A stretch of DNA of 64,000 nucleotides from a virus. The stretch is from positions 45,149 through 109,148 of the IMG/VR virus record IMGVR_UViG_3300030387_000087; one strand, given 5' to 3'. The translations under genes were made by a program, and so were the position numbers. Under the pieces are notes generated by a model. That model made no database searches and was not told the origin of the DNA. It saw only the letters and a list, made by a program, of their open reading frames with translations. Below, piece by piece: positions 25,703-57,426 of this stretch (positions are counted from its first letter, which is position 1; each line of letters begins with the position of its first letter).

Positions 25703-26711
25703 GATAGAAGTACAAAACAAAAATGCTGAAAAGCTTAATAGAAAATTGGATGAGTTAAACGCACCACAGTTTTTAAGAGATTACTTGAATGAGTTGGAAA
25801 GCAAGAACGGAGCGTTAAATTATTTAGTGGCAATTAAAGATTTTTTACAGTGGTTGATTGAAAGTAATATTATTAATAAGAAATCAATTTCTGAAATAGA
25901 AGTTTCTGATTTTAGCGACTTACGACCACAAAATATTAGTTCATACCTTAGATATAAGGAAACAAATGGAATGTCGCCAACCACAACGGAAACAAGAAAA
26001 AACATCATTAAAAGTTTTATACAGGATATTTATTCATATAGAGAATGTTTGTTGAGAGAACTCTATAACAGTATGAAAGATTTTAATAAACAAATAAAAT
26101 ATAAAGGAATATCTTCTAAAAACAACTTAACACAAAAACTTCCAACAGAAAATCAGCTTAATGATATGGAAGAAAAAATAATGTGGAAAAAGGACGAATG
26201 TGTAAGGAATAGGAATATTGCTATTTTTCATGTGTTAAGAGGAACTGGAATAAGAGAGTCTGAACTTGCTGGCTTGGATTTATCAGATTTGCATTTAGAT
26301 GAAAATAGTGAATATATTGATCTTAATGATATGTCACATATTATGGTTTTACCAAAAGGATATCAAAGAGAAACTGAAAAAAGACCTGTATATCTTACTG
26401 GATCTGCTCTGAAAGCATTAAGAGAATGGCTAGAGTACAGAAATACATTGAAAAACATTATTGATATAGAAGCTGTGTTCATTAATAAAAATGGTACACG
26501 TACAACAGAGAGAAATATCAAACAGATATTTGAGAATTATGGAAATGGTATTACTCCACATATGATGAGACATTATTATGCTAGTGTAATGAATCAGAAT
26601 GGAAATCTTGCGTTCGTGCAGCAACAGCTTGGACATAGTAGTGTGAATACAACAGTTAATAACTATGCAAACGGAGCTGTGGGAATGAAAGCAGTTTTGG
26701 AGAATATGTAA
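25671..26711 (+). CDS. int: tyrosine recombinase / phage integrase family
   Basis: C-terminal HMMRHYYASVMNQNGN..LGHSSVNTTVNNYAN (R..HxxR..Y catalytic-box pattern); N-terminal SAM-like domain. Confidence 0.85.
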   Translation: MKARLMNMCYKIEVQNKNAEKLNRKLDELNAPQFLRDYLNELESKNGALNYLVAIKDFLQWLIESNIINKKSISEIEVSDFSDLRPQNISSYLRYKETNGMSPTTTETRKNIIKSFIQDIYSYRECLLRELYNSMKDFNKQIKYKGISSKNNLTQKLPTENQLNDMEEKIMWKKDECVRNRNIAIFHVLRGTGIRESELAGLDLSDLHLDENSEYIDLNDMSHIMVLPKGYQRETEKRPVYLTGSALKALREWLEYRNTLKNIIDIEAVFINKNGTRTTERNIKQIFENYGNGITPHMMRHYYASVMNQNGNLAFVQQQLGHSSVNTTVNNYANGAVGMKAVLENM

Positions 26712-27094: not shown

Positions 27095-27460
27095 ATGGAA
27101 ATTAATACATTTGATATTGTGAAAGTTGATTTTGGAAATATAGAATTTGCTGGAGAACAAGGAGGTATTCGTCCGGCAGTGGTTATTCAAAATGCATATG
27201 GAAACATTTATTCAGGAACGACAATAGTGATTCCTTTTACAAGTAAAATAAAGCATATTAAACAGTCAACTCATTCCTTCTTTCAAAAAGATGAAAGTAA
27301 GGGATTGACGCAAGATTCAATGATACTTGGAGAATGTGTTAGACAAATCTCAAAAGAAAGAATCTTAAAAAAGTTAGGAACTATTACCAAAATGCAAGAA
27401 AAGAAAAAAGTAAAAGCTGTATATGATGCAAATTTTGGTTCATTGGGAGAGGAGATATAA
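27095..27460 (+). CDS. MazF/PemK-family endoribonuclease toxin homologue
   Basis: FDIVKVDFGNIEFAGEQGGIRPAVVIQN..IVIPFTSK matches the PemK/MazF N-terminal core; RBS aaaggaggt. Confidence 0.65.
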   Translation: MEINTFDIVKVDFGNIEFAGEQGGIRPAVVIQNAYGNIYSGTTIVIPFTSKIKHIKQSTHSFFQKDESKGLTQDSMILGECVRQISKERILKKLGTITKMQEKKKVKAVYDANFGSLGEEI

Positions 27461-31422: not shown

Positions 31423-31584
31423 ATGGAAGTATTTTTTATATTAGTTTTAATAGGATTAATAATTTTATGGTTTCTACTGTCAAGATTTTTTCAAAAAATA
31501 GGAAATTCTACTATTAATAAAATGAAAGATCTTGTAACAGATGAAATAAATAACGAAGAAGAAAAGGAGACAAAACAACAATGA
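31423..31584 (+). CDS. small single-TM protein (~53 aa), overlaps SPFH gene start
   Basis: RBS aaaggagaat + ATG; FFILVLIGLIILWFLL hydrophobic helix; stop overlaps the ATG of the SPFH gene. Confidence 0.35.
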   Translation: MEVFFILVLIGLIILWFLLSRFFQKIGNSTINKMKDLVTDEINNEEEKETKQQ

Positions 31585-32450
31585 AGAAAGTTGTAGGTGG
31601 CGTTGTATCTGCCATAGTGATACTATTTTTAGCAATAATTTTATTTAAGTCAACAGTTCGTGTACCTGCTGGATATATTGCCGTACAGTACAGTATGTCG
31701 GGCGGTGTAAAAGGAGATATTCTTACACAAGGATGGCATTTAAAGTCACCAACTGTAAAAACGACACTTTACTCGGTGAGTCTTGAACAGAGCTATTTAA
31801 CGTCCGGCAAGGACGGAGACTCTAAAGATGATGACAGCTTTTCAGCGAGTTCATCTGAGGGTAAGGCTATGCAGATAGATCTTACATTTACATATCAGTA
31901 CAGTCCTGATAAGATAGCTGATCTATTTACAAGATTTAGAGGACAATCTGGAAAGGAAGTAAGAGATAGTTTTATTAAGCCTAATATCATCTCTTGGACT
32001 AAGGAAGTTGTTGCTAACTATAAGGTATCAGATATTCTTGGTTCTGAAAGAGCAAATGTAAATACAGCATTAACTGATTACCTTAATAAGAAATTTGAAC
32101 CATATGGTATAGCGATTAGCAATGTATCATTGATTAATATTTCTGTAGACGAAAAGACACAGGAAGCTATTAATGCAAAGATTACCGCACAGCAAGCAGC
32201 AGAGACACAGGAGATAAATAATCAGACTGCTATTAATAAAGCTAAAGCTGATGCGGAGGTTGCTAAAACACAGGCACAGGCTAAAGCTGATGCACAGCTC
32301 ATAGAAGCTCAAGCACAGGCAGAAGCTAACAGTAAGTTGAGTTCTTCTATCACAGATGAACTTATAAGAATGAAGGAAGCAGAAGCAAGAAATAAGTTCG
32401 GTTGGGTTACAATTTCAGGAACAAATAATACAATTGTAACTGATAAGTAA
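31581..32450 (+). CDS. SPFH/band-7 (stomatin/prohibitin-like) domain membrane protein
   Basis: N-terminal TM helix; PAGYIAVQYSMSGGVKGDILTQGWHLKSP SPFH core; Ala/Gln-rich coiled-coil C-terminus. Confidence 0.7.
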   Translation: MKKVVGGVVSAIVILFLAIILFKSTVRVPAGYIAVQYSMSGGVKGDILTQGWHLKSPTVKTTLYSVSLEQSYLTSGKDGDSKDDDSFSASSSEGKAMQIDLTFTYQYSPDKIADLFTRFRGQSGKEVRDSFIKPNIISWTKEVVANYKVSDILGSERANVNTALTDYLNKKFEPYGIAISNVSLINISVDEKTQEAINAKITAQQAAETQEINNQTAINKAKADAEVAKTQAQAKADAQLIEAQAQAEANSKLSSSITDELIRMKEAEARNKFGWVTISGTNNTIVTDK

Positions 32451-32463
32451 TTAGAGAATATAT

Positions 32464-32486
32464 AGGTGTGGTGAAATTCCACACCT
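32464..32486 (+). other. 8-bp hairpin AGGTGTGG-tgaaatt-CCACACCT between SPFH gene and tRNA-Gln
   Basis: seen in sequence; no T-run, so possible processing site or weak terminator. Confidence 0.35.
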
Positions 32487-32492
32487 AACTAA

Positions 32493-32565
32493 TGGGCTGT
32501 GGTGAAGTGGTCAACACAACAGGTTTTGATCCTGTCATTCGTGGGTTCAAGTCCCACCAGCCTAG
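32493..32565 (+). tRNA. tRNA-Gln (anticodon TTG)
   Basis: manual fold: 7-bp acceptor stem with one G-U pair, anticodon stem ACAGG/CCTGT, loop TTTTGAT, T-arm GTGGG-TTCAAGT-CCCAC; CCA not encoded. Confidence 0.8.
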
Positions 32566-32569
32566 TTAT

Positions 32570-32642
32570 GTGCCATTAGCTCAGTTGGTAGAGCACTAGA
32601 CTTTTAATCTAGGTGTCACGAGTTCAAACCTCGTATGGCACA
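32570..32642 (+). tRNA. tRNA-Lys (anticodon TTT)
   Basis: manual fold: acceptor GTGCCAT/ATGGCAC, D-arm GCTC-AGTTGGTA-GAGC, anticodon stem CTAGA/TCTAG with loop CTTTTAA, T-arm ACGAG-TTCAAAC-CTCGT. Confidence 0.85.
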
Positions 32643-32671
32643 TTATTTATTATATTAGGAGGTATTTTAAA

Positions 32672-33049
32672 ATGAAAACAATAGACAACAAGTTTGAAAT
32701 TGGGGAAGAATGTTATACATATGCAAGAGAAAATGTAGAAGTTATTTGTCCAATATGTAAAGGAACAAAGAAGATTCTTTACAACGGATATGAAATTCCA
32801 TGCAAACAGTGTAATACAACAGGGAAGATTGTATGTAAACAGACAGTGGTTGCACCTCATAAGGTTAGAATTAGAAGAATTGTGGCTAGTATCTGGGATG
32901 AAGTAATCACAATTAAGTATAAGATTGATGCTGTTGATGATTATATTAATGTAAGAAATAGAGGAGAAAGTTCTTTATTTAAGACATTAGAAGAATGCGA
33001 ACAGAAATGTAAAGAGATTAATCAAGGTGAGAGTAGTGCTACATTTTAG
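32672..33049 (+). CDS. zinc-finger protein
   Basis: CPICKGTKK..CKQCNTTGK; RBS ttaggaggt. Confidence 0.45.
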   Translation: MKTIDNKFEIGEECYTYARENVEVICPICKGTKKILYNGYEIPCKQCNTTGKIVCKQTVVAPHKVRIRRIVASIWDEVITIKYKIDAVDDYINVRNRGESSLFKTLEECEQKCKEINQGESSATF

Positions 33050-33086
33050 CAGTAAAATTCTCTTTCTTTGGATTGTGAGGTGGAAT

Positions 33087-33320
33087 ATGACGTTAGAAAC
33101 TTGTATGGAGATAGGAAAAAGTTGCGGATTAACAAAAATAGAAGAATGTTATGATAATATTTATCTTCATTCTTCTATGATATTTAAATATCAGAATATA
33201 AACAAAGAAATTGAAGAATTACAAAGGGATATATTCTATCATGAACCTGATTTATTTTGTCAGATATTTGATAGTACAAAAGAAGATTTGATAAAAAAGG
33301 GATGGAAAATAAAAGAATAA
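33087..33320 (+). CDS. hypothetical protein
   Basis: internal ATG after gattgtgaggtgg leader. Confidence 0.4.
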   Translation: MTLETCMEIGKSCGLTKIEECYDNIYLHSSMIFKYQNINKEIEELQRDIFYHEPDLFCQIFDSTKEDLIKKGWKIKE

Positions 33321-33356
33321 AGAAATGCTTTTCTTTGGATTGTGAGGTGAAAATAA

Positions 33357-33779
33357 ATGGACAAAACAAAAATTAAAACAAAAGAGGTGTGGTCAGCTAA
33401 TAAGTGGTATCTATTTTTTGGAATTCTATTTGTGATTATGATTATCTTATTGGAGATGTGTGCAATAAGACAATTCTTTGTGACAGATACAGAAGAAGCA
33501 TTAGTGTTGCTCTTTATTTTACAACTGCCAGCTATGATTTGTTTATTATTAACAACGATGATTGGAGATTATATTCATAGAGAAAAATTCAATATCTATT
33601 ACTGTAAATTAGAAAATGGTATTGATATTGATTATATCAAAGAAAATTATTGTATAGAAGATATAAATAAGAGTTGCGTATTGTTTGTAGATAAAGGCAA
33701 CGATCATAATTTTTGTGTTTGGAATTTAATGCAAGGATATGATTCATTATATCAAGCAGAAATTAAAATGTTTTTATAA
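33357..33779 (+). CDS. membrane protein (2 predicted TM helices)
   Basis: WYLFFGILFVIMIILL and LVLLFILQLPAMICLLLTTMIG hydrophobic segments. Confidence 0.45.
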   Translation: MDKTKIKTKEVWSANKWYLFFGILFVIMIILLEMCAIRQFFVTDTEEALVLLFILQLPAMICLLLTTMIGDYIHREKFNIYYCKLENGIDIDYIKENYCIEDINKSCVLFVDKGNDHNFCVWNLMQGYDSLYQAEIKMFL

Positions 33780-33819
33780 CAAGAATGTTCGATTTCTTTG
33801 GAAGAGAGGCGAGTAATAT

Positions 33820-34017
33820 ATGAGTAATGGTGATATAGCATTAATTATTTTTTCAATCATTGGATTGATTATTTCGTATTCTGTTTTATGTAGTATGCCA
33901 GGAGATTTTTTGAAAGCATTTGAAGAAAGTTGTAAAGAGTCAATACATAAAAGAGATGAAGAATTAGATAAGAAAGATAAGATGAATAAAGAATTGCAAA
34001 GATGGTTATTTAGGTAG
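33820..34017 (+). CDS. small single-TM protein with charged C-tail (holin-like topology, speculative)
   Basis: IALIIFSIIGLIISYSVL then KRDEELDKKDK. Confidence 0.4.
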   Translation: MSNGDIALIIFSIIGLIISYSVLCSMPGDFLKAFEESCKESIHKRDEELDKKDKMNKELQRWLFR

Positions 34018-34059
34018 AAAGAAAACTTCGATTTATGTGAAATTTAGAAAGGAGACAAT

Positions 34060-34767
34060 ATGAATATCACAGCTATTTCAGTAGAAAATTTAGAAGAAAA
34101 TGGATTGGATTTATTACCTAATAAAATAGAATTAAAAGTACGAGGTAACATTTTCCCAGATACATATGGAAAGTGTATTGGTAGATATGATAAAACCAAT
34201 GACAAGTTTGAATCATTTTTTAAAAAGGATCAAGAGGCAGGAAATACTCGTTATTTTGATGAGTATAAAAAGAAATGCAGCCTTTATGAAAAACATAGAA
34301 TGGTATTTGAACCTGATGGAGATTGTTGCATAGAAAAGGAGATTGTAGACTATTATGTTATGTATAACATATTGGAAAGTAGTAAATTTAAGCCAACAAT
34401 AATCGAAGACCATGTTGATCATTCATACTGTATAAACGGAAGTTTTAAGTGTGAATATGAACTTTTATTTGCTTGTGATGGTGCTATAAGAAGAATTATT
34501 GTTCCATTTACTTCTGTAAATATTCCAATGTATGAATTTATTGGTAATTTAGAAGACATGGTAGAAGAAGTTCTTTATGAGGAATCAGACGAGACAAATC
34601 CATTTAATGATATTTTTAGAGATTGTGATGGATATTATGAAGTTACGATGTTTGATGAGATTGGTATGAATTGTGATATTGAAGTAGAAAGTGCTTCTGA
34701 TTTTATGGCTATGCTTGTGTCAGTTAGATTAGTGGGATATGAGTTTATTGAAGATAAGAATAAATAA
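34060..34767 (+). CDS. hypothetical protein
   Basis: ORF track; RBS aaaggagac. Confidence 0.5.
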   Translation: MNITAISVENLEENGLDLLPNKIELKVRGNIFPDTYGKCIGRYDKTNDKFESFFKKDQEAGNTRYFDEYKKKCSLYEKHRMVFEPDGDCCIEKEIVDYYVMYNILESSKFKPTIIEDHVDHSYCINGSFKCEYELLFACDGAIRRIIVPFTSVNIPMYEFIGNLEDMVEEVLYEESDETNPFNDIFRDCDGYYEVTMFDEIGMNCDIEVESASDFMAMLVSVRLVGYEFIEDKNK

Positions 34768-34901
34768 AACGGAGAATATAACAGTAGAAACAATTAACAA
34801 AAATAAATATAAGAAAGAAGAGGTACAAAACATGGATGGATTTATGAAATTTAAGAAGGCTTTACAGAAGCACTTCGATGAAATGCAGAAAGAAGAGGAT
34901 A

Positions 34902-35906
34902 ATGACAAAAGATAATTATAGTATTTATAAACACACATCCCCAAGCGGTAAATCTTATATAGGAATTACAAAGCAAGGGAAGAAAAGATTTGGCAAAGAT
35001 GGAAATGGTTATAAAAAACAAAGAAAATTTTATAATGCTATTCAAAAATATGGGTGGGATAATTTTGAACATGAAATTATAGAAGATAATTTATCTTTTG
35101 AACAAGCCTGTTTTGGTGAACAACTATACATTGAGATTTATGATTCAATAAATAATGGGTACAATATTGCAATTGGAGGAGAGGGCGTACAAGAAATAGG
35201 AAATAGAAAGGTTGTGCAGCTCTCACAAGATTTAAAACCAGTAAACATTTTTAAATCAGTTTCATATTGCTCAGATGTAGTAGGATTTAAAAGTATTACA
35301 ACGATTAGTAATTGGTGTAATGACGGAAAACTTCACTGTGGATATTATTGGAAATTTTTAGATGAATGTGAAAATGTAAAAATTGAACATAGTTTATTTG
35401 ATGATACTATGGTGAATTATAACCATTTGAATTTTAATCCATATTCTGACAAAGAAGAAAAAATTCATAATTCTCGGAAAGGGAAAAGAAGTAATAGTAA
35501 ACGAAAAATAAATCAATATGCAATGGATGGAACTTATATACGAACATGGGATAGCATTATTGATGCGGTTACATATTATAAGATGCCGAATGATTCAACA
35601 ATTATAAGAGCAATAAAAAATAAGTACAATTGTTTTGGATACAGATGGACATATTACGATGGAAGTATTGTAGATATACTACCTAATATAACCAAGAACA
35701 AGAAAATTTTACAGTTTAATATAAATGGAGTTTTTATAAATAAATATAATAATTCCATACAAGCAGAAAAAGAAACTGGAATATCCAGAAAAAATATTAC
35801 TAGAGTTTGCAGTGGTGGAAGAAAAACAGCTGGTGGTTATATATGGAGATATGAAGAAAATATGTCTGATGAGGATTTGGATAAGGCACTTGCAGAGTTA
35901 GAGTAA
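34902..35906 (+). CDS. GIY-YIG homing endonuclease
   Basis: N-terminal YSIYKHTSPSGKSYIGIT..GKKRF (GIY..YIG..R) module and long basic C-terminal DNA-binding region; start at internal ATG (track ORF begins 34878). Confidence 0.7.
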   Translation: MTKDNYSIYKHTSPSGKSYIGITKQGKKRFGKDGNGYKKQRKFYNAIQKYGWDNFEHEIIEDNLSFEQACFGEQLYIEIYDSINNGYNIAIGGEGVQEIGNRKVVQLSQDLKPVNIFKSVSYCSDVVGFKSITTISNWCNDGKLHCGYYWKFLDECENVKIEHSLFDDTMVNYNHLNFNPYSDKEEKIHNSRKGKRSNSKRKINQYAMDGTYIRTWDSIIDAVTYYKMPNDSTIIRAIKNKYNCFGYRWTYYDGSIVDILPNITKNKKILQFNINGVFINKYNNSIQAEKETGISRKNITRVCSGGRKTAGGYIWRYEENMSDEDLDKALAELE

Positions 35907-35920
35907 TGTTTTATGGGCTG

Positions 35921-35953
35921 GCTGACGAACAGTTGGTCAGTCCTTTTTAATAG
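35921..35953 (+). terminator. rho-independent terminator after homing endonuclease gene
   Basis: GGCTGAC-gaacagttg-GTCAGTCC stem-loop followed by TTTTT. Confidence 0.45.
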
Positions 35954-35970
35954 AAAGAGAGGTATATATT

Positions 35971-36867
35971 ATGCCAGTACATGATGATTTAGGCGTTAGA
36001 ATGAAGACATTCTACGAGCAGATTCCAAAGACAAAGTTAATGAGAAGATGCCCTGTGGCATTGAGAATTGATGGGAAATCTTTTCATACATTCACAAGAG
36101 GATTTCAGAAGCCTTTTGATGAAGTTTTGATTAAATCAATGCAGGAGACTATGAAATATTTATGTGAGAATATTCAGGGTTGTGTTCTTGGATATACACA
36201 GTCAGATGAGATAACACTTATTCTTGTGGATTACAAGAAACTCACATCTTCAGCATGGTTTGACTATGAGGTACAGAAGATATGCAGTATTGCAGCAAGT
36301 ATTGCGACTATGGCTTTTAATAAAGCTTTTAGAAAAAATGTAAACGATTGGTGGTTTACTCCGTTTTCTGGCGTTATAAAAGAATTCCAAGAACGAGAAA
36401 CTTTATATAAAACATATAAAAATGCTATAGAAAAAGGTGCAATGTTTGATTGTCGTTGCTTTAATATTCCAAAGGAAGAAGTAACTAATCTTGTATATTG
36501 GAGACAATTAGACGCTACTCGTAATTCAATTCAGATGGTAGGTCAAGTCAATTTTTCACACAAAGAATTACAGAACAAGTCTTGTAATGAGATTCAGGAT
36601 ATGTTAATGACTCAGAAAGGTGTTAATTGGAATGATTTGCCTATTTATCAGAAGCGTGGAAGTTGCTGTGTAAAAGAAAATCATTTTATAGAAAATGAAA
36701 AAGGAACTCAAATATGTTTTTCGGAAGGGTGTTCAGATCCATTTGAAGATGAAGAAACTTTAACAGGAGTATATAGAAGTGGTTGGGTTATTGATACAGA
36801 AATTCCGATTTTTAAGAATGAAGGTAGAGAATATATAGATAGATTAGTCTATGTTGGTGAAGAATAG
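35971..36867 (+). CDS. Thg1-like protein (tRNA-His guanylyltransferase / 3'-5' polymerase family)
   Basis: ALRIDGKSFHTFT (Thg1 hRhDG+xFHxF motif) and GYTQSDEITLIL (Thg1 QSDE motif) seen in translation. Confidence 0.75.
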   Translation: MPVHDDLGVRMKTFYEQIPKTKLMRRCPVALRIDGKSFHTFTRGFQKPFDEVLIKSMQETMKYLCENIQGCVLGYTQSDEITLILVDYKKLTSSAWFDYEVQKICSIAASIATMAFNKAFRKNVNDWWFTPFSGVIKEFQERETLYKTYKNAIEKGAMFDCRCFNIPKEEVTNLVYWRQLDATRNSIQMVGQVNFSHKELQNKSCNEIQDMLMTQKGVNWNDLPIYQKRGSCCVKENHFIENEKGTQICFSEGCSDPFEDEETLTGVYRSGWVIDTEIPIFKNEGREYIDRLVYVGEE

Positions 36868-36881
36868 AAGGGAAGTACAAA

Positions 36882-37151
36882 ATGTTTGGATTAAAAGTGG
36901 CAAGTACACATGAAATAATTGAAAAATTAGAGGAATATGAAAAAGAAAATGGAGTCGGTGCAATAGTATCATTGAGTACAATGTGTAGAGGCGACAGAAC
37001 TGTTCAGTATGTATTTGAAATTGCAAATGATTCTGATGGGAATAGGGTATTAGCACCAGATAAAGATAGATACAAAAGAACTAAAATTGAAATATCTGCT
37101 GTATTGGACGATTCATTATTTCCAAATAGGTATAAAATTCCAAATAAATAA
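36882..37151 (+). CDS. hypothetical protein
   Basis: ORF track; RBS gaagggaag. Confidence 0.4.
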   Translation: MFGLKVASTHEIIEKLEEYEKENGVGAIVSLSTMCRGDRTVQYVFEIANDSDGNRVLAPDKDRYKRTKIEISAVLDDSLFPNRYKIPNK

Positions 37152-37201
37152 TTTTGTTAAGAAATTCACGATTCATGTGGAATTTAGAAAGGAAAGAATA
37201 T

Positions 37202-37447
37202 ATGGTTAGATATTTTTGCGATTTATGTGATAAGGAAGTTGATAAATATAATGAGTATTCGTTGCCGATTGCAGCCACTTTTATAAATGGTGAACCATAT
37301 GATTTAATTCAAGTTCCTGGGTTTAATTTGTGTAAAGATTGTAGAAGTAGGTTTTACGGAGTCGTTGAAAGTATTGTTCCAAAGCAGAAGATTGAAGAAT
37401 TAAATAAGAGGGCTTTGGATATAAAAATGGGAAGATGTGATGAGTAA
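37202..37447 (+). CDS. zinc-ribbon protein
   Basis: internal ATG (MVRYFCDLCDK..CKDC) after conserved leader motif. Confidence 0.4.
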   Translation: MVRYFCDLCDKEVDKYNEYSLPIAATFINGEPYDLIQVPGFNLCKDCRSRFYGVVESIVPKQKIEELNKRALDIKMGRCDE

Positions 37448-37488
37448 CAAGAATCGCACATTTCTTGCGGGAATTTGGAGGTGAAATT

Positions 37489-37761
37489 ATGTTCGTTTAT
37501 GGAAGATTAAAAACTATATTTATGAAACCGTCGGAGATACCTAAAGAAAAAGAAAAGGAATATTTTTGTGTAGGCGATGTGCCGGAAGGTGGTATAGCAA
37601 TTTATAATCAAGGATATTTTATTCCTCATAAGACATTAAGTGAAATAGTAAGTAAATATAATTCAGAAATAGAAGAATTAAAAAATGCATTGGAAAACAA
37701 AGAGATCGAATATGACAAATTGAAAAGAAAATACGATAAATTATTGGATGGGGTGAGTTAA
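37489..37761 (+). CDS. hypothetical protein
   Basis: internal ATG (MFVYGRLK) after conserved leader motif and RBS tttggaggtg. Confidence 0.4.
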   Translation: MFVYGRLKTIFMKPSEIPKEKEKEYFCVGDVPEGGIAIYNQGYFIPHKTLSEIVSKYNSEIEELKNALENKEIEYDKLKRKYDKLLDGVS

Positions 37762-37863
37762 TGTCAAACTTATATGTATATCTAATGCGTTCTCGTAACA
37801 AGGATATTCCAAATTTTAATGAACGAGTAAAAACAGATATGTGAAATTTTGGAGGTTAAGACA

Positions 37864-38892
37864 ATGACAATTGAACAGATTAAGAACAAATTAAAATCAA
37901 AAGAGTATGACTTCCTGAGAACAGATAAGAATTTAGGTAACAATATCATTATCTTAACTCTTGGTGGAAGTCATGCATATGGGACAAACAATGAGGGCAG
38001 TGATTTAGATATTCGTGGTTGTGCTTTAAATAGCAAGATGCAAATTCTTACAAACGAGAATTTTGAGCAGTTTGTAAATAATGAAACAGACACAACTATT
38101 TATGCATTTAATAAGTTAGTTGCTTTATTAAGCAATACAAACCCTAACACAATTGAGATGCTTGGAAATAAGCCAGAACATTATTTCTATGTATCTCCTA
38201 TTGGTCAGGAACTTATTGACAATGCACATTTATTCTTATCAAAAAGAGCTTGTCATTCATTTGGAGGATATGCGAATCAGCAGCTCTATAGATTGAACCA
38301 GAAAGCAGCGCATCAGATGTCTCAGTCAGAATTGGAGAAACACATTTTAAAGACGCTTGAATTTATGCAGACAGATTTTACAAAGAAATACACACCATAT
38401 TCAGATGATTCAATGAAGTTATATATTGATAAGGCTGTGCAGGAAGGATATGACACAGAGATTTTTATGGATGTAAACCTTACTCATTATCCATTAAGAG
38501 ATTATTGCTCTATGTGGAATGAACTTCAGAACACAGTTCGTCAGTATGGAAAGATTGGTAAAAGAAATGAGAAAGCTATTGAGCATGGTAAAATTGCAAA
38601 ACATTCAATGCATCTTATTCGACTTTATATGATGTGTTTAGATATTCTTGAGAAAGAGAGAATAATCACATATAGAGAAGATGAATATGATTTGCTTATG
38701 GATATTCGTAATGGTAAATATCTCGACAGCAACGATCAGCCAATTCCTGAGTTCTTTGAAATGGTAAATGACTATGAGAAGAGATTGGATTATGCAAAGA
38801 AAAATACTAATCTTCCTGAAAATCCAGACTACAAGAAAATCAATGAGTTTGTTGCAAGTGTAAACGAAAGGGTGGTTAAGGGTGAAATCTAA
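37864..38892 (+). CDS. Pol-beta-superfamily nucleotidyltransferase
   Basis: LGGSHAYGTNNEGSDLDIRG fits hG[GS]-x10-DhD minimal NTase motif; large helical C-terminal domain; start at ATG after ttggaggttaag. Confidence 0.55.
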   Translation: MTIEQIKNKLKSKEYDFLRTDKNLGNNIIILTLGGSHAYGTNNEGSDLDIRGCALNSKMQILTNENFEQFVNNETDTTIYAFNKLVALLSNTNPNTIEMLGNKPEHYFYVSPIGQELIDNAHLFLSKRACHSFGGYANQQLYRLNQKAAHQMSQSELEKHILKTLEFMQTDFTKKYTPYSDDSMKLYIDKAVQEGYDTEIFMDVNLTHYPLRDYCSMWNELQNTVRQYGKIGKRNEKAIEHGKIAKHSMHLIRLYMMCLDILEKERIITYREDEYDLLMDIRNGKYLDSNDQPIPEFFEMVNDYEKRLDYAKKNTNLPENPDYKKINEFVASVNERVVKGEI

Positions 38893-40285
38893 ATTAAAAA
38901 TTAAAATCCCATCTGGTGCAAATGAGATTATTCATACACTCCAAGATAAAGGATATGAAGCATATTTAGTTGGTGGATGTGTTCGTGATAGCATTCTTAA
39001 AAGAACAATTCATGATTATGATATTACAACATCTGCCACACCTGATGAGATGCTTGAAATATTCAAGGGCAAAAGAATTATTAAAACTGGCTTACAGCAT
39101 GGAACAATAACGATTGTCATTGATGGCGAACCATACGAGGCAACAACTTACAGAATTGACGGTAATTATTCTGATAATCGTAGACCAGATAAAGTGACTT
39201 TTACAAAAAGTCTTAAAGAGGATTTAAAACGTAGAGATTTTACAATCAATGCTATGGCATACAACGATGAAGTTGGTCTTGTAGATCCGTTTAATGGTAT
39301 GGAAGATATAAAATATCACAAAATTCAATGTGTAGGTAAACCAGAAGATAGATTTGCTGAAGATGCTTTGAGAATTTTACGTGCTATCAGATTTGCTTCT
39401 CAGTTGGATTTTGTTCTTGAACCGAATACAGATTATGTTTTGCATAAGATGTATCAGAATTTGGAAAATATATCAGTTGAAAGGATAAATAGTGAGTTCT
39501 GTAAAATCGCTGCATCAAGTGATTTCTGTGTACAGATGGTCTTATATAGAGATGTATTATCATTGTTTATTCCTGAAATCAAAGATATGTTTGAATTTCC
39601 ACAGAATAATCCATATCACATTTATGATGTATGGGGACATACAATTCATGCAGTAGAAGCATATTTTTGTGATTGTGAAGAAGACTTAAATCCAATAGAT
39701 TTAATTACATCATTAGCAGTGTTCTTTCACGACATAGGGAAGCCACATTGTTATCAAGACGGAGAAGATGATATCAGACATTTTAAAGGACATGGAAGAG
39801 TTAGTGCTGATATGACAGATAAGATTATGAAAAGACTCTGTTTTGATAATGATACAAGAGAAAAGGTCGTTGAATTAGTTTATTATCATGACGCTACTTT
39901 TGAGATGGGAAAGAAATATGTCAAGAGATGGCTTAATAAAATCGGAGAAGAACAGTTTAGAAGATTATTAAATGTTCGTAGAGCTGATATTAAAGCACAA
40001 GCTTATACAGAGCAAGAGAGTAGGCTTCAGAAAATTGACAATATCGAATATATTTTAGAGGAAGTTTTACAGAAAGACGAATGTTTCTCACTAAAAGATT
40101 TGGCTGTTAATGGCAATGATTTGATTGAGATTGGATATAAGCCAGGAAAAGAAATAGGAAATGCACTGAAATGTCTTTTACAATTGGTAATCGAAGGTGT
40201 ATATCAAAACGAAAAAAGTGAGTTACTTAAATATGTTAAGACAACAAAAGAATGGATGAAGTTAGGAGAAAAATATAATGGTTAG
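38882..40285 (+). CDS. cca: CCA-adding tRNA nucleotidyltransferase (class II, with HD domain)
   Basis: YLVGGCVRDSILKR..DYDITT head motif, RRDFTINAMAY, HD motif FFHDIGKP; strong similarity to Bacillus CCA enzyme by eye. Confidence 0.85.
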   Translation: MKSKLKIKIPSGANEIIHTLQDKGYEAYLVGGCVRDSILKRTIHDYDITTSATPDEMLEIFKGKRIIKTGLQHGTITIVIDGEPYEATTYRIDGNYSDNRRPDKVTFTKSLKEDLKRRDFTINAMAYNDEVGLVDPFNGMEDIKYHKIQCVGKPEDRFAEDALRILRAIRFASQLDFVLEPNTDYVLHKMYQNLENISVERINSEFCKIAASSDFCVQMVLYRDVLSLFIPEIKDMFEFPQNNPYHIYDVWGHTIHAVEAYFCDCEEDLNPIDLITSLAVFFHDIGKPHCYQDGEDDIRHFKGHGRVSADMTDKIMKRLCFDNDTREKVVELVYYHDATFEMGKKYVKRWLNKIGEEQFRRLLNVRRADIKAQAYTEQESRLQKIDNIEYILEEVLQKDECFSLKDLAVNGNDLIEIGYKPGKEIGNALKCLLQLVIEGVYQNEKSELLKYVKTTKEWMKLGEKYNG

Positions 40286-40355
40286 ATTATTTAGTCAGAG
40301 TATCAAATTAAAAGTTGTTGAAGAACTCTTCAAAAAGTAGAATGGAGAGTAAACT

Positions 40356-41096
40356 ATGTACGAACAATTAAGAGAATATATAGAAGAATCAAATAATATT
40401 GTATTCTTTGGTGGAGCAGGTGTATCTACTGAAAGTGGTATTCCTGATTTTCGTTCCAAGGATGGATTATATAATCAGCATGACGTTCAGTTTGATAAAT
40501 ACGAACCTGAATATCTTTTGAGTAGAGAATGCTTATACAACAATCCAAAGGTGTTCTATGAGTTCTATCGGCAGAAGATGGATACAAGAAATATTGAGCC
40601 AAATATTACTCATAAGGTACTTGCCAAGATGGAAGAAATAGGTAAGTTGAAAGCTATTGTAACACAGAATATTGATGGACTTCATCAGAAAGCTGGCAGT
40701 AAGAATGTCTTTGAGATTCATGGAACTACTCAGAAAAATTATTGTAGTAAATGCAAAATGGAATATCATTCTGATTTCTTGTTCAGCACTAAAGAAGCTA
40801 TCCCAAAGTGTGAATGTGGTGGACTGATCAGACCTGATGTGACTTTATATGGAGAGAATTTGCCGAATGAAGCTGTAAATGGTGCTGTTGAAGCAATTAG
40901 TAATGCTGATATGTTGATTATTGGTGGTACTTCATTAAAAGTTTATCCAGCAGCTCATTATATTTCATATTTTAGTGGCAATCATTTAGTTGTTATCAAT
41001 AGGGAGAAAATTCAAGTGTTGTTATACGGTGAAACTGATTTGATGATTGTTGATTCGTTGGGTAATGTATTTAATGAGATTGAAAAATGGATATGA
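40356..41096 (+). CDS. Sir2-family NAD-dependent protein deacylase (CobB-like sirtuin)
   Basis: GAGVSTESGIPDFRS, TQNIDGLHQKAG, catalytic HG in EIHGTT, Cys4 zinc module CSKC..CECGG, GTSLKVYPAA. Confidence 0.8.
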   Translation: MYEQLREYIEESNNIVFFGGAGVSTESGIPDFRSKDGLYNQHDVQFDKYEPEYLLSRECLYNNPKVFYEFYRQKMDTRNIEPNITHKVLAKMEEIGKLKAIVTQNIDGLHQKAGSKNVFEIHGTTQKNYCSKCKMEYHSDFLFSTKEAIPKCECGGLIRPDVTLYGENLPNEAVNGAVEAISNADMLIIGGTSLKVYPAAHYISYFSGNHLVVINREKIQVLLYGETDLMIVDSLGNVFNEIEKWI

Positions 41097-41104
41097 GGTG
41101 AATT

Positions 41105-41701
41105 ATGGCAGTATATGTAACAGGTGATATACATGGAAATCCTGTGAGATTAAGTAAAGATAATTTTTATGAACAAAAAGATTTTTCTGGTAATAAAGAT
41201 GATAATACTGTAATTATTCTTGGTGATTTTGGTCTTGTATGGAACAGAGATGGTGAAAGCAAACAGGAAAAATATTGGTTGGATTGGCTTGAAAATAAGA
41301 ATTTTACAATAGTGTTTGTTGACGGTAATCACGAGAATCATAAAAGACTTGCAACTTATCCTATAAAAGAATGGCATGGTGGCAAAGTTCGTGAGATCAG
41401 ACAAAATGTACTTCATCTAATGCGTGGTGAAGTGCTTACCATTGAAGATAAGAAATTCTTTACATTTGGTGGTGCATCAAGTCATGATATTCAGGATGGC
41501 ATTCTTGATTACAATGACGAAGATTGGAGAGAGAAAGCTAAGAAACTTGATAGTCAAGGTAAATATATGTATCGCATAAAAGATTTATCATGGTGGGAAG
41601 AGGAATTACCAACAGATGAAGAAATGCAGCATGGACTAGATGTTCTAAAAGAGAATAATAATATAGTTGATTATATTATCACACATAGTCCCTCTACATA
41701 A
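41105..41701 (+). CDS. calcineurin-like metallophosphoesterase, N-terminal part up to an in-frame TAA
   Basis: GDIHGN, ILGDFGLVWN, GNHENH motifs; reading frame continues after TAA (41699..41701) to ~41878, encoding the FGHMHI (GHxH) motif. Confidence 0.6.
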   Translation: MAVYVTGDIHGNPVRLSKDNFYEQKDFSGNKDDNTVIILGDFGLVWNRDGESKQEKYWLDWLENKNFTIVFVDGNHENHKRLATYPIKEWHGGKVREIRQNVLHLMRGEVLTIEDKKFFTFGGASSHDIQDGILDYNDEDWREKAKKLDSQGKYMYRIKDLSWWEEELPTDEEMQHGLDVLKENNNIVDYIITHSPST

Positions 41702-41878
41702 GAGTTGTATCTTATGGGTGGTAAAGGATTATATGAACCAGATGTATTGACTAATTATTTGGAAGAAGTGAAAGCTGCAGTTGAATATAAAAAGCATTTG
41801 TTCGGTCATATGCACATAAACAAGGCAATCAATGATAAAGACATTTGCTTATATGAACAGATTGTTAGGATATTGTAA
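41702..41878 (+). pseudogene. C-terminal continuation of the metallophosphoesterase after an in-frame stop
   Basis: same frame; ELYLMGGKG..HLFGHMHINKA carries the final phosphoesterase motif. Confidence 0.4.
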
Positions 41879-41892
41879 AGTGAGGTGAGAGG

Positions 41893-42090
41893 GTGAATAA
41901 AAGCAAATTTACATATCCAAAATGTCCATATTGCAAGGAAGAATATCAAGATGGAGTTATGGAATATGATTTGATGAATTTAGTAACTCAAGGTTGGTGC
42001 AAAGAAGTAAACGTAAAATGTCATAGTTGTGGTGAGTATTTCAAAGTGAAGGCACACATTACTTATTATGGTTCAAAGTTAGCGAGGTAA
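41893..42090 (+). CDS. zinc-ribbon protein
   Basis: CPYC..CHSCGEYF; GTG start. Confidence 0.4.
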   Translation: MNKSKFTYPKCPYCKEEYQDGVMEYDLMNLVTQGWCKEVNVKCHSCGEYFKVKAHITYYGSKLAR

Positions 42091-42094
42091 AAGA

Positions 42095-42325
42095 GTGTTA
42101 GATTACAGTAATGCAGATTTCCCTAAAGAAACTTATTACATAAGACATCCAAATCGCATATATTTTCCTACAGATTTTTATGATGGTGAAAAAATATTCT
42201 ATTATGGCAAACATACTAAACCAAGTAGTAATGCGAGAGGATATAGATGGTATCGAAATGTGCATGGTTTAATGAAACTTGTTCATTGGACTGATATTAA
42301 ACATGGGAAATTATTTCAAAGATAG
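42095..42325 (+). CDS. hypothetical protein
   Basis: ORF track. Confidence 0.4.
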   Translation: MLDYSNADFPKETYYIRHPNRIYFPTDFYDGEKIFYYGKHTKPSSNARGYRWYRNVHGLMKLVHWTDIKHGKLFQR

Positions 42326-42413
42326 TTAATATAAACAGAGAATAATCTAATATAGAAGTAATTCTATTCAAAGGCTGATCAGTCAAATTTTCCAAGCAAA
42401 GCGAGGTAAGAAA

Positions 42414-42788
42414 ATGATTTATTGTAACAATATAGATGCAAGATATAATGTTATATATAGAAATACCTTTAATGATTTACAATACATTGATGACGGAACA
42501 CATTATAATAAAGATTTTTGGGCTTTTGCATACAAGGAAGATGAGAGAGCATTAAATCTTATGTGTAAGCCCGTAAAGGGTAGAATCAAAGAAGATAAAT
42601 ATTTTTATGAATACAAAGTAAATGGTAGAGATTTAAAAAAGAATGGTGTAACTATATATGCAAGATTATTTGCTGATACATATGAAGAAGCTGTAGAGGG
42701 ATTTAACAAATTGGTTAGAACCAGAATTAAATCTCTAAAAGATGAAATTTATAAACTGGAAGATATGTTGATTATATGTAATATGTAG
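42414..42788 (+). CDS. hypothetical protein
   Basis: ORF track; RBS gcgaggtaag. Confidence 0.45.
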   Translation: MIYCNNIDARYNVIYRNTFNDLQYIDDGTHYNKDFWAFAYKEDERALNLMCKPVKGRIKEDKYFYEYKVNGRDLKKNGVTIYARLFADTYEEAVEGFNKLVRTRIKSLKDEIYKLEDMLIICNM

Positions 42789-42791
42789 GAG

Positions 42792-43301
42792 GTGAGAATT
42801 GTGCTATCGCAGGAAAATATTAACAAACTGTGTATGACTGGACTATATAGGCATGAACCAGATGTTAAATATCGAGGTTCTATATATGAAAATCAATTAT
42901 TCCATTGCTGCAACTGGGTGTTCGAGGTCAAATATAACGAATACGAAGATACATATCAAATGGTCGATAACTTTTGGGGTGATGGTAGTGGTCTTAGGAT
43001 TGAACTTACAGATGATAATATTGATGAGTTTGAACTGATATTTGATAAAGAAGAAGTTACTATGAATTATGGCAACAATATTTGGGATTATGATGAAACG
43101 GATAGATTCTATGTTGCTATAGGAAGTGGTGGCACTCAATTTGGTAGCAAGTGGTTTGTCAAAAAGGATGCTAAAAAGAATAAAGACAAAGTAATAAATA
43201 GGTTAAATGATGAAATCAAATCATTAGAGACAGAACTTCTTCGCAAGAAACAGACTTTGGAAGAAGTAATTCATGGAGATAGAGATTTAAAATATCTTTA
43301 A
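42792..43301 (+). CDS. hypothetical protein
   Basis: ORF track; RBS taggaggtgag. Confidence 0.45.
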   Translation: MRIVLSQENINKLCMTGLYRHEPDVKYRGSIYENQLFHCCNWVFEVKYNEYEDTYQMVDNFWGDGSGLRIELTDDNIDEFELIFDKEEVTMNYGNNIWDYDETDRFYVAIGSGGTQFGSKWFVKKDAKKNKDKVINRLNDEIKSLETELLRKKQTLEEVIHGDRDLKYL

Positions 43302-43400
43302 TAACAGATCAGTATAGAAAATTTTCTTAACTTGGATATTCGTTCAAGTATTTCCAAAAACAAAAATAAAGTAATGAAATATTTTTTTCTTTATTCTCTG

Positions 43401-43503
43401 TCAAAATCCTTTAATCTACAGAGATTGCGCAATCATTTATCCTAGAATTTACTGTTAAATCCTTTCATTTTTAATATTATTTTGTTGTAAAATCCTATGG
43501 AAT
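43401..43503. repeat. three direct copies of AAATCCT(T/A)T in the intergenic region upstream of the C5-MTase
   Basis: gtcaaaatccttt / gttaaatccttt / gtaaaatcctat seen in sequence. Confidence 0.4.
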
Positions 43504-43586
43504 TTGCACGTCTGCAAAAACCATAAGAAAAAAATAATTATTGTGAGTTAAGTGTAATTGAACTTTGCAGTGGCATTGGAGCACAG

Positions 43587-46029: not shown

Positions 46030-46872
46030 TTGAAAAATACATATATAAAATCACCACTTAACTATGTTGGTGGTAAGTACAAACTGTTGCCACAGATTAT
46101 TCCATTATTTCCAGATAACATTGAAACATTTGTTGATTTATTTGGTGGAGGATTTAATGTCGGCATAAATGTAAATGCAAGATTAACGGTTTATAATGAT
46201 TTAGAAAGTCATGTTGTAGAGTTATTAAAATATTTAAAGGATACTGATACAGAAAAGTTGTTGTCAGAAATTGATAATTTGATAAGTAAATACAACCTAT
46301 CTAAAGAAAATGCAGAAGGATTTAATCAGTTGAGAGAATATTATAATGAAGAAAACAATAAGCCTATCGTATTTTACACAATGATTTGTTATGCGTTTAA
46401 TTATCAAATTCGTTTTAATCAGAACGGCAAATATAATATGCCTTTTGGCAAAGCAAGAAGTAGTTTCAATCCATCATTGAGACAGAAATTCATAACATTT
46501 ACGGATGCTTTGCATAACAAGGATTGTATGTTTTTTAATGTACCATTTCATAAATTTAGATTTGATGAATTAGAAAAAGGTGATTTTGTTTATGCTGATC
46601 CACCTTATTTTAATAGCGTAGCTGCTTACAATGAGCAAGGTGGTTGGACAGATAACCACGAAAGAACATTATTGGCACATCTGGATGAATTAAATTTCAA
46701 AGGAATATCTTTTGCTCTTAGTAATAATCTCAAATATGATAATCCATATTTAGATGAGTGGAAGAATAAATATAATGTTCATTATCTTAGTGGTGATTAT
46801 AGTAATTGTAATTATCATAAAATTGACAGAAGTAAGGATTGTGAAGTATTAATAACAAATTATCAAAGGTAG
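46030..46872 (+). CDS. Dam-family (D12 class) N6-adenine DNA methyltransferase
   Basis: N-term SPLNYVGGKYKLLPQI..FVDLFGGGFNV (motif I) and VYADPPYF (DPPY motif IV); TTG start. Confidence 0.8.
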   Translation: MKNTYIKSPLNYVGGKYKLLPQIIPLFPDNIETFVDLFGGGFNVGINVNARLTVYNDLESHVVELLKYLKDTDTEKLLSEIDNLISKYNLSKENAEGFNQLREYYNEENNKPIVFYTMICYAFNYQIRFNQNGKYNMPFGKARSSFNPSLRQKFITFTDALHNKDCMFFNVPFHKFRFDELEKGDFVYADPPYFNSVAAYNEQGGWTDNHERTLLAHLDELNFKGISFALSNNLKYDNPYLDEWKNKYNVHYLSGDYSNCNYHKIDRSKDCEVLITNYQR

Positions 46873-53548: not shown

Positions 53549-53552
53549 CCAT

Positions 53553-53903: not shown

Positions 53904-53907
53904 TCAT

Positions 53908-54192: not shown

Positions 54193-54258
54193 TAATAATT
54201 TGACAAGAATCCTGTCTTTCATTGTGAAATTATAAATTAAAAGAAAGTAGAGATTAAA

Positions 54259-54624: not shown

Positions 54625-54668
54625 TAAATGTTTTTAAAATTAAAATGATTGGAAAAAGAGGTGAATAA

Positions 54669-55145: not shown

Positions 55146-55158
55146 AGGAGGAAACTGA

Positions 55159-56821: not shown

Positions 56822-56912
56822 AAAACCGACATTTCATGACAAGTCTGAAGCTACATATGGTGGTTGAATGAATTGTAAAGCACAATATATAGTAAAGAAA
56901 GGAAGGAATATT

Positions 56913-57425: not shown

Positions 57426-57426
57426 T

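Follow-up and report, generated by a model that had tools for sequence, protein, structure and literature searches.

What does a phage gain from keeping two tRNA genes close to several enzymes that act on RNA ends? We addressed this question for a 64,000-nucleotide stretch of viral DNA (IMG/VR record IMGVR_UViG_3300030387_000087, positions 45,149 to 109,148), hereafter the window. The original prediction described a tRNA end-repair island at positions 32,493 to 41,878, comprising two tRNA genes and genes for a GIY-YIG endonuclease, a Thg1-like protein, a Pol-beta-type nucleotidyltransferase, a CCA-adding enzyme with an HD domain, a sirtuin and a metallophosphatase. All these enzyme identities passed profile searches. 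The conserved core of the region is a translationally coupled pair of genes for an RlaP-family nucleotidyltransferase and a CCA-adding enzyme, with a tRNA cassette headed by tRNA-Gln(UUG) a few kilobases upstream. On balance, judging from the sequence, we consider that the locus probably serves in the general maintenance and repair of tRNA and RNA ends.

The RlaP-CCA pair and its tRNA cassette

We compared 232 loci from IMG/VR, 80 centered on Thg1, 80 on RlaP and a further 72 on the CCA enzyme, taking the best 80 relatives per scan, and mapped the homologs of every island gene in all of them, with flanks to 10 kb. Individual loci and contigs are designated by L numbers. The features of the core region are as follows.

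32493-32565, + strand: tRNA-Gln(UUG) (ARAGORN; Infernal/Rfam RF00005, 63 bits versus a gathering threshold of 29; U1-A72, discriminator G73)
32570-32642 (Infernal) or 32569-32643 (ARAGORN), + strand: tRNA-Lys(UUU) (Rfam, 73.5 bits versus a gathering threshold of 29; discriminator A73)
37864-38892, + strand: RlaP-family Pol-beta nucleotidyltransferase (PF10127, E=3e-15; PHROG 388, E=7e-52)
38882-40285, + strand: class II CCA-adding tRNA nucleotidyltransferase with HD domain (PF01743, PolyA_pol head; PF13735, tRNA_NucTran2_2; PF01966, HD)

The Pol-beta-type nucleotidyltransferase was confirmed and could be assigned more specifically to RlaP, as it matched PF10127 with 57 bits against a threshold of 23 over profile positions 11 to 247 of 249. 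The GS...DxD active site is present, with GGSHAYG at residue 34 and SDLDIRG at residue 46, and gene calls on near-identical contigs place the likely true start at 37864. The CCA enzyme scored above the cut-off of the NCBIfam equivalog NF009814 (323.5 versus 290 bits). Its head domain displays GGCVRD at residue 31, DYD at 45, RRDFT at 117 and EDALRILRAIRF at 160 (EDALR), matching the class II motifs A (GGxVRD...DxD), B (RRD) and D (EDxxR). Its HD domain (PF01966, 28.2 bits versus 22) carries FFHDIGKP at residue 281 and is predicted to have phosphohydrolase activity, as does the HD domain of multifunctional CCA enzymes of the E. coli type.

The two genes overlap by 11 nt. In 61 of the 73 informative RlaP-centered loci, the CCA gene immediately follows RlaP and overlaps it in the register seen here. 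Seen from the other side, RlaP lies upstream of the CCA gene in 46 of 65 CCA-centered loci, directly in 28 and with a second RlaP type and a 320-codon open reading frame (ORF) in 18. RlaP is up to 99% identical in IMG/VR phages, and the phage records with RlaP and with a CCA enzyme number 389 and 520, respectively. The Clostridium botulinum plasmid pNPD1_1 (NZ_CP013295) also has genes for a DUF262 protein and a tyrosine recombinase followed by an overlapping RlaP-like/CCA pair (50% and 44% amino acid identity), but it carries RtcB 2.1 kb downstream and no Thg1, sirtuin or metallophosphoesterase gene nearby.

RlaP of Pseudomonas adds one or two nucleoside monophosphates to the 3'-OH ends of damaged RNA and restores the aminoacylation of tRNAs after excessive damage (PMC12776372). 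Like the phage locus, Pseudomonas rtc operons bring RlaP (PMC12776372) and, in P. aeruginosa, an SPFH/Band-7 gene (PMC13086221) into an RNA repair locus. In contrast with the phage locus, which has neither RtcB nor RtcA and in which RlaP is coupled to the CCA enzyme, they are cellular, regulated by RtcR and built on RtcB and RtcA. RlaP is named for its association with ligases but is coupled to a CCA enzyme in this phage group.

ARAGORN found exactly two tRNA genes in the whole window, and Infernal/Rfam agreed with it on tRNA-Gln(UUG) and tRNA-Lys(UUU), as predicted for the 32.4- to 32.7-kb region; the Infernal/Rfam search of the 30- to 45-kb region returned nothing significant beyond both tRNAs. 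CCA enzymes add and repair CCA. Neither gene of the pair encodes this triplet, the tRNA-Gln sequence being followed by TTAT and that of tRNA-Lys by TTATTT, and both tRNAs therefore need post-transcriptional CCA addition. The 4-nt spacer TTAT between them is conserved in relatives. Both acceptor stems are fully paired, which rules out mitochondrial-type 5' editing of the phage tRNAs, and the anticodon loops are canonical.

The same Gln-Lys pair was found in L089, L094 (twice), L098, L100 and L121. tRNA-Gln(UUG), with or without a gene for Lys, Met or Ile, occurs within 10 kb upstream of RlaP in 26 of 36 close RlaP loci; it is the constant tRNA of the phage group, whereas its partner varies among these three, which bears on the putative link of tRNA-Lys to PrrC or PARIS. 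Ten of the 36 close RlaP-CCA loci and most of the distant ones have no tRNA within 10 kb. As any tRNA was present in just 9 of 60 Thg1-centered loci, tRNA genes accompany RlaP-CCA and not Thg1.

Several relatives carry a duplicated cassette: L094 has two Gln-Lys pairs separated by 4 kb, and L088, L098, L104, L116 and L126 each have tRNA-Gln twice. This is reminiscent of how homing endonucleases drive the amplification of tRNA gene segments (PMC13096335). In L093 (IMG/VR contig 3300045988_129440, positions 5244-5394), a single G-to-A change gives a tRNA-Gln homolog the anticodon UUA, making it a potential ochre suppressor, and the anticodon stem of the neighboring tRNA-Lys homolog is disrupted. 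In a more distant lineage (L157, L159, L160 and L161), a tmRNA gene (Rfam, 94.6 bits) lies at approximately 8300-9150, 1.2 to 1.7 kb upstream of RlaP. These four loci have Thg1 6.6 to 7.3 kb downstream, a metallophosphoesterase gene about 9.7 kb upstream and no CCA enzyme within 10 kb.

Three further features flank the tRNA pair.

31581-32450, + strand: SPFH/Band-7 protein (PF01145, E=4.5e-27), ending 42 nt before the tRNA pair
32463-32487, no strand: hairpin-forming 9-bp inverted repeat that ends 5 nt before tRNA-Gln
32672-33049, + strand: 125-residue CxxC zinc-ribbon-like protein, directly after the tRNAs, with 86-90% homologs upstream of RlaP-CCA in many relatives

The hairpin is a possible processing or terminator element. 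SPFH homologs of at least 90% identity also directly precede a tRNA pair in L093/L186 and L233, and we infer that the SPFH gene belongs to the module. Burroughs and Aravind reportedly described SPFH modules with a tRNA-like RNA in 2016 in NAR and proposed them as repair cofactors. A prohibitin-family gene is also found 650 bp downstream of Thg1 in Fusobacterium phage Fnu1.

The Thg1-like protein and the mosaic around it

Between the tRNA cassette and the RlaP-CCA pair lie the gene of the Thg1-like protein (TLP), a homing endonuclease gene and traces of recombination.

34832-34894, + strand: remnant, the last 21 codons of a 687-codon gene (tblastn, 95% identity over 21 residues; recombination scar)
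34902-35906, + strand: free-standing GIY-YIG/NUMOD homing endonuclease, in an ORF that opens at 34878 (PHROG 314/5123/7168, NUMOD1, TIGR01453)
35915-35943, + strand: hairpin resembling an intrinsic terminator (12-bp stem, then a T-run), separating the endonuclease and Thg1 genes
35971-36867, + strand: TLP of the bacterial type, putative templated 3'-5' RNA polymerase
36882-37151, 37202-37447 and 37489-37761, + strand: three small ORFs, two of which occur singly just upstream of RlaP in other phages
37761-37835, + strand: remnant, the last 28 codons of a 183-codon gene (tblastn, 71% identity over 28 residues, E=7e-7; scar)

The Thg1-like assignment held up well against profiles (PF04446, matching the N-terminal palm domain, E=4e-31, 107.9 bits versus a threshold of 29.2; PHROG 4717, "tRNA-His guanylyltransferase," E=6e-91). 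The catalytic motifs are intact, with RIDGKSFH at residues 32-39 and QSDE at 77-80, and both align with the motifs of the Bacillus thuringiensis TLP that provide the metal-binding carboxylates. The closest solved structure is that of the latter protein (4KGK, E=4e-63), whereas the human, yeast and Candida Thg1 enzymes score far lower (E=6e-8 to 4e-6), indicating that the phage protein is a bacterial-type TLP. It shares the RxDG and SDE motifs with the B. thuringiensis enzyme (4KGK/4KGM), which repairs 5'-truncated tRNA in vitro (PMC3701042), and differs from it by two insertions, near residues 126-156 and 238-264. In general, TLPs rebuild truncated tRNA 5' ends by synthesizing RNA from a template in the 3'-5' direction (PMC4820378, PMC3701042).

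The suggestion in the original prediction that no Thg1-like enzyme had been described in a phage proved wrong. Thg1 homologs are present in 164 INPHARED phage records, with hosts that include Bacillus, Prevotella, Caulobacter, Mycobacterium and Fusobacterium; PHROG 4717 bears the name of the enzyme; and gp143 of phage Bc431v3 was flagged as a tRNA-His guanylyltransferase in 2013 (PMC3601020). In 2021, Iyer, Anantharaman, Krishnan, Burroughs and Aravind discussed RlaP, the CCA enzyme and Thg1 jointly as phage restorers of RNA ends (PMC7824862).

Thg1 is kept across the phage group at 55-81% identity, normally at another site. In contigs with both Thg1 and RlaP-CCA, such as contig 125846, about 30 kb separates them. 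At least 14 of 80 Thg1 contigs also carry RlaP/CCA, a lower bound as it comes from the lists of the best 80 matches. The neighborhood of Thg1 is extremely variable, its commonest neighbor family being present in 28 of 81 loci. Where Thg1 lies within 10 kb of RlaP, it does so in at least six differing arrangements. RtcB directly follows Thg1 in L240 and is 3 kb from it in Bacillus phage Goe8. The neighbor of Thg1 annotated "AIPR" in Goe8 was tested as a candidate RlaP and is not one, and labels of primase and helicase given by eye to two common Thg1 neighbors were not confirmed by Pfam and were withdrawn. An adenylosuccinate-synthetase-like gene (PF00709, E=1e-34) occurs 2 to 8 kb upstream of Thg1 in 21 of 81 loci (e.g., L019, positions 1546-2637) and could encode a PurZ-type enzyme for 2-aminoadenine DNA.

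Comparison with close relatives indicated how Thg1 came to its present site. The endonuclease has its GIY-YIG motif at residues 14-31, and its likely true start is 34902 according to gene calls on near-identical contigs. Its gene shows a presence/absence pattern: in L085 a copy of 99% identity immediately precedes RlaP, and L086 lacks the gene at that site. L085 matches the window at 99% over 34767-35907, which includes the endonuclease gene, and the match resumes from 37847, at RlaP. The window-only segment of 1.94 kb (35908-37846) contains the terminator-like hairpin, Thg1 and the three small ORFs, for which searches of Pfam and PHROG gave no match. The full 687-codon gene, a remnant of which precedes the endonuclease gene, is present in 71 loci, usually upstream of RlaP; the 183-codon gene is the partner of Tpt1/KptA upstream of the CCA gene in sister phages. 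Identities to contig L009 are mosaic, ranging from 65% to 92%. In this lineage, recombination beside a mobile GIY-YIG gene brought Thg1 close to RlaP-CCA, a position that function does not depend on. In gene type and setting, the endonuclease can be likened to SegB of T4/T6 (PMC13096335), also a free-standing GIY-YIG gene in a tRNA and anti-defense region, and relatives such as L094 duplicate their tRNA cassettes; unlike SegB, it is 2.2 kb from the tRNAs, it flanks the Thg1 segment and the window shows no amplification.

The window has approximately 30% G+C, a marked strand asymmetry and about 125 ORFs, nearly all on the + strand; downstream of the tRNA pair, every island gene is on this strand and the spacing is tight. 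Megablast with the island found no close DNA match in INPHARED, which comprises 50,697 deposited phage genomes; in IMG/VR, relatives are plentiful, on contigs of 90 to 230 kb. In a scan of genome collections, matches to Thg1 were confined to Lachnospiraceae and Clostridia genomes (44-63% identity), and among cultured phages, the closest RlaP and CCA enzyme are those of Clostridioides phages AR1086-1 and pCD1602_4. Located in the early, one-strand gene block of a phage of about 150 kb that infects gut Lachnospiraceae/Clostridia, the region is a mosaic accessory locus. The exact TLP was found on 22 contigs, of which the five inspected, from independent assemblies, share the gene order, and L248 is 99.995% identical to window positions 25971-46867. 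The arrangement therefore belongs to a real circulating phage lineage and is not an assembly artifact.

The island was also found at 139-160 kb of a 382,525-bp scaffold (L247; ENA ERZ28577043 scaffold_2). As this scaffold exceeds the IMG/VR contigs in size, it may represent a prophage, a much larger element or a misassembly. Contigs L252 to L254, chosen by identical proteins, show a divergent minus-strand block upstream of the left end of the window, with a PF05183 RdRP-like protein of 812-922 residues, a YonO-type single-subunit RNA polymerase, and about 2.7 kb without called genes between both divergent blocks. A promoter scan was uninformative, with 63 sites found versus 76 expected.

Optional partners, RNA ligase and other genes

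The genes that follow the core pair, and an RNA ligase gene beyond the end of the window, are listed here.

40356-41096, + strand: CobB-type NAD-dependent sirtuin, a protein deacylase (PF02146, E=9e-57; NF001752, 310 bits versus 221)
41105-41878, + strand: metallophosphoesterase gene, interrupted (PF00149, 38.2 bits versus 21.5; PHROG 1649)
L244, positions 12079-13005, 1.36 kb beyond the window end: Rnl2-type RNA ligase (PF09414; motifs I, III, IV and V as KVDG, FGEW, EGIVVK and VLKIV)

The slots on both sides of the CCA gene have interchangeable occupants. In about 15 loci without RlaP, the upstream slot is taken by a Tpt1/KptA RNA 2'-phosphotransferase (PF01885, E=8e-46) and its 183-residue partner. 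The commonest gene directly after CCA encodes a DHH/DHHA1-like phosphoesterase (62 of 112 locus views); a sirtuin was seen in 13 of these views, never with DHH, and a metallophosphoesterase in 14, with either. The combination of RlaP, CCA enzyme, sirtuin and phosphoesterase found in the window is rare. Co-conservation of the predicted island thus holds for RlaP-CCA, but not for Thg1, which is near RlaP or CCA in few loci (see below), for the sirtuin, which follows CCA in 8 of 65 CCA-centered loci, or for the phosphoesterase, which does so in 9 of 65. The six-gene "island" is a lineage-specific mosaic around the conserved RlaP-CCA core.

The sirtuin has GAGVSTESGIPDFRS (NAD-binding GAGxS) at residue 20, EIHG (catalytic His) at 120 and a Cys4 zinc ribbon with CSKC at 130 and CECGG at 152. 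It has the look of CobB-type cargo that was captured, and its place in the slot after CCA is optional.

The metallophosphatase belongs to the predicted family, PF00149, but in this strain an in-frame TAA at 41699-41701 (codon 199) cuts its product short. The 198-residue product keeps GDIHG, GDFG and GNHE and loses the C-terminal metal-binding GHMH (residue 234). The gene is intact in relatives, with 257 codons, and 12 homologs have TCA (Ser) at that codon. It is also intact in L247 and L249, which are 99.97% identical to the window over 33781-43391, whereas L248 shares the stop; as these near-identical strains are intact, the stop is a strain-level TCA-to-TAA nonsense mutation. Recoding of TAA, or its read-through by tRNA-Gln, was considered and ruled out, because the homologs have TCA and not CAA and near-identical strains are intact. 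Metallophosphoesterases of the lambda and CthPnkp types open 2',3'-cyclic phosphates (PMC2190708). A sequence search against solved structures gave no match for RlaP, the full-length phosphoesterase or the Rnl2-like ligase.

No RNA ligase or polynucleotide kinase was detected in the window, whether by Pfam and PHROG searches of all ORFs of at least 140 codons, by searches of 93 smaller ORFs pooled, or by tblastn with two RtcB sequences, and RtcB was not found within 10 kb in the 232 IMG/VR loci. However, contig L244, 100.000% identical to window positions 53286-64000, runs past the right end of the window and carries the Rnl2-type ligase gene, about 26 kb downstream of RlaP, so the predicted toolkit is not a non-ligase one. 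At the ligase position, the relative L246 has genes for an HNH endonuclease, an RNA ligase, a CthPnkp-like kinase (PDB 4GP7, E=3e-11) and a phosphoesterase.

Other genes of the window deserve mention in their own right. About 50 bp upstream of a C5 DNA methyltransferase gene, a 133-bp segment (43392-43524, within 43380-43536) is exactly inverted in L247, with flanks 99.97% identical. It is flanked by the 12-bp inverted repeats TATTTTTTTCTT and AAGAAAAAAATA, is in the opposite orientation in L085, L086, L165, L166, L171 and L208, and looks like a phase-variable promoter or 5' end of the phage methyltransferase gene. A candidate for the invertase is the tyrosine recombinase encoded at 25671-26711. 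The window carries four DNA methyltransferase genes in a span of 9 kb (C5, 43587-45020; D12/Dam-like, 46030-46872; N6_N4, 49853-50722; D12-like, PHROG 56, 51643-52383), probably for anti-restriction self-methylation. A cluster for NAD+ salvage and synthesis (56868-61950; isochorismatase/nicotinamidase-like, PRPP-synthetase-like, NAMPT/NAPRTase, NADAR and NAD synthase genes) resembles the NAD-reconstitution genes with which phages counter defense, and could also supply the sirtuin and, in sister phages, Tpt1. A gene for a MazF/PemK-like endoribonuclease toxin (27095-27460), kept in relatives, is located just downstream of the tyrosine recombinase gene, and the small early ORFs at 1-25 kb include two HicA-like toxins and a GP17 superinfection-exclusion homolog.

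Proposed function and alternative explanations

Part of the original tRNA repair proposal is retained: TLP, RlaP and the CCA enzyme all belong to families that add nucleotides to RNA or tRNA ends. Its non-ligase character, its six-gene island and a link of the sirtuin to tRNA are not. On the basis of family biochemistry, we propose the following sequence of events. The two phage tRNAs would be produced from a dicistronic, CCA-less precursor processed by host RNase P and by RNase Z or an exonuclease, after which the phage CCA enzyme would add or restore CCA on both phage and host tRNAs. RlaP would refill positions lost beyond CCA, presumably acting before the CCA enzyme and letting it finish, and TLP may refill 5'-truncated acceptor stems with the 3' strand as its template. 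Blocking phosphates could be cleared by phosphoesterases, namely, the HD domain and the metallophosphoesterase, or DHH or Tpt1 in sister phages, and the Rnl2-type ligase about 23 kb downstream would seal internal breaks. tRNAs would thereby stay chargeable during infection, the most plausible reason for such upkeep being host nucleases or toxins that attack tRNA. The alternative slot occupants Tpt1/KptA, DHH and metallophosphoesterase are all RNA-end enzymes, which argues for a functional theme of the locus. We are less confident of the specific claim that it counters tRNA-targeting defense than of general end maintenance and repair.

A close precedent is the RNA repair described for jumbo phages (PMC7824862), which involves the same RlaP, CCA and Thg1 families, phage tRNAs, phosphoesterases, KptA and RNA ligases, and is read there as a counter to attack on tRNA. 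There, however, the distribution of RlaP mirrors that of RNA ligases, whereas in this locus the RlaP gene overlaps that of the CCA enzyme, at a distance from the ligase gene; in addition, the present phage is a non-jumbo gut-Clostridia phage of about 150 kb in which the partner slots of the CCA gene are swapped between strains. T4 Pnkp and Rnl1 are likewise phage-encoded enzymes that restore host tRNA damaged by a defense nuclease, and tRNA-Lys(UUU) is the classical target of PrrC. T4, however, uses a kinase-phosphatase and a ligase to heal and seal a break in the anticodon loop, whereas the clustered enzymes here are of kinds that add end nucleotides, the window yielded no Pnkp, and the ligase, of the Rnl2 type, is encoded far from them.

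Several observations weigh against the proposal. Thg1 is rarely close to the other two nucleotidyltransferase genes: among Thg1-centered loci, RlaP is found within 10 kb in 5 of 80 and the CCA gene in 2 of 80, and Thg1 lies within 10 kb in 7 of the 152 loci centered on RlaP or CCA. By our calculation, random placement in a 150-kb genome would bring two genes within 10 kb of each other in approximately 13% of cases, and so the proximity of Thg1 to RlaP-CCA is not enriched. The usual neighbors of Thg1 are adenylosuccinate-synthetase-like, PAPS-reductase-like, radical SAM and AAA_24 ATPase genes, of nucleotide metabolism and recombination, and because this holds in most relatives, the substrate of TLP may not be tRNA. 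The sirtuin is a canonical deacylase without a known tRNA function, the metallophosphoesterase is cut short in this very strain, and the end-healing kinase of classical ligase repair was not found in the window, having been seen in L246 only. Firmicute hosts have a CCA enzyme of their own, which makes a simple supply role possible. The host itself is placed to family level.

A role in supplying mature tRNAs would require no more than a phage CCA enzyme for CCA-less phage tRNAs in cells where the host enzyme is limiting or shut off; the other genes would be unrelated, and no attack would be countered. The missing CCA in both tRNAs, the co-localization of tRNA genes with RlaP-CCA and the full score of the CCA enzyme as a housekeeping-type equivalog all fit this idea, as does codon usage for lysine, since AAA makes up 65% of Lys codons and Lys 9.3% of residues. 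For glutamine the fit is poor, with CAA representing just 47% of Gln codons despite the 30% G+C of the genome. A supply role also leaves unexplained the tight RlaP-CCA overlap and the presence of Tpt1/KptA in place of RlaP and of phosphoesterases in the same slots, and it does not account for the RlaP-CCA pairs noted above that lack a tRNA gene within 10 kb. We regard it as improbable, if still worth considering. Only slightly less credence goes to the view that the locus is a hypervariable recombination hotspot collecting unrelated cargo, with no joint function beyond RlaP-CCA. The highly variable neighbors of Thg1, the scars at 34832-34894 and 37761-37835, the mosaic identities to L009, the mobile endonuclease gene flanking the Thg1 segment, and the sporadic occurrence of the sirtuin and phosphoesterase are what one would expect of such a hotspot. 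Random cargo would hardly explain, however, why the alternative slot occupants are RNA-end enzymes, why Thg1 is found within 10 kb of RlaP in at least six arrangements, and why Thg1 and RlaP-CCA each adjoin RtcB in other elements.

The nucleotidyltransferases might also act on substrates other than tRNA, such as the ends of mRNAs or small RNAs or nucleic acid ends made in replication, TLP being, in most relatives, part of a nucleotide metabolism and recombination module. The usual neighbors of Thg1 point that way; moreover, some Dictyostelium TLPs serve purposes unrelated to tRNA (PMC5041481) and RlaP acts on generic damaged RNA in vitro (PMC12776372). With a bona fide tRNA CCA enzyme as the partner of RlaP, tRNA and tmRNA genes nearby, and a TLP closest to the B. 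thuringiensis enzyme, a tRNA repairer in vitro, we find this very unlikely. Still further down in probability, to the point of being barely credible, is a phage-borne system of defense or superinfection exclusion in which the sirtuin would act as an NADase, or a nucleotidyltransferase as a toxin, against competing phages. Toxin-type genes do occur elsewhere in the window (the MazF/PemK-like gene, the two HicA-like genes and the GP17 homolog), but PADLOC gave no meaningful match for TLP, RlaP, the CCA enzyme or the sirtuin, and the latter is a zinc-ribbon CobB-type protein above the equivalog cut-off, not a defense-type SIR2.

Within the proposed maintenance and repair of RNA ends, a bolder version can be formulated, which we consider rather unlikely. 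The overlapping RlaP-CCA pair, its interchangeable partners and the TLP that adjoins them in this lineage would form a dedicated, ligase-independent machine that rebuilds both strands of the tRNA acceptor end. RlaP would refill the discriminator and nearby positions, the CCA enzyme would complete the 3' end and TLP would restore the 5' strand, as a defense against host toxins by which tRNA 3' ends are trimmed, extended or phosphorylated. If true, this would be the first physiological role for bacterial-type TLPs and for RlaP.

Every gene family involved and the general concept of phage RNA repair are already known; what is new is the arrangement, with RlaP coupled to the CCA enzyme and interchangeable partner slots around them. 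These widespread human-gut phages, in which RlaP is coupled to CCA close to tRNA genes, offer a concrete hypothesis for the physiological substrates of bacterial-type TLPs and RlaP, namely, that RlaP, the CCA enzyme and TLP may constitute a pathway of acceptor-end repair distinct from the healing and sealing of anticodon breaks. tRNA-targeting defenses may thus matter in gut Clostridia, in which defense and counter-defense have been little studied.

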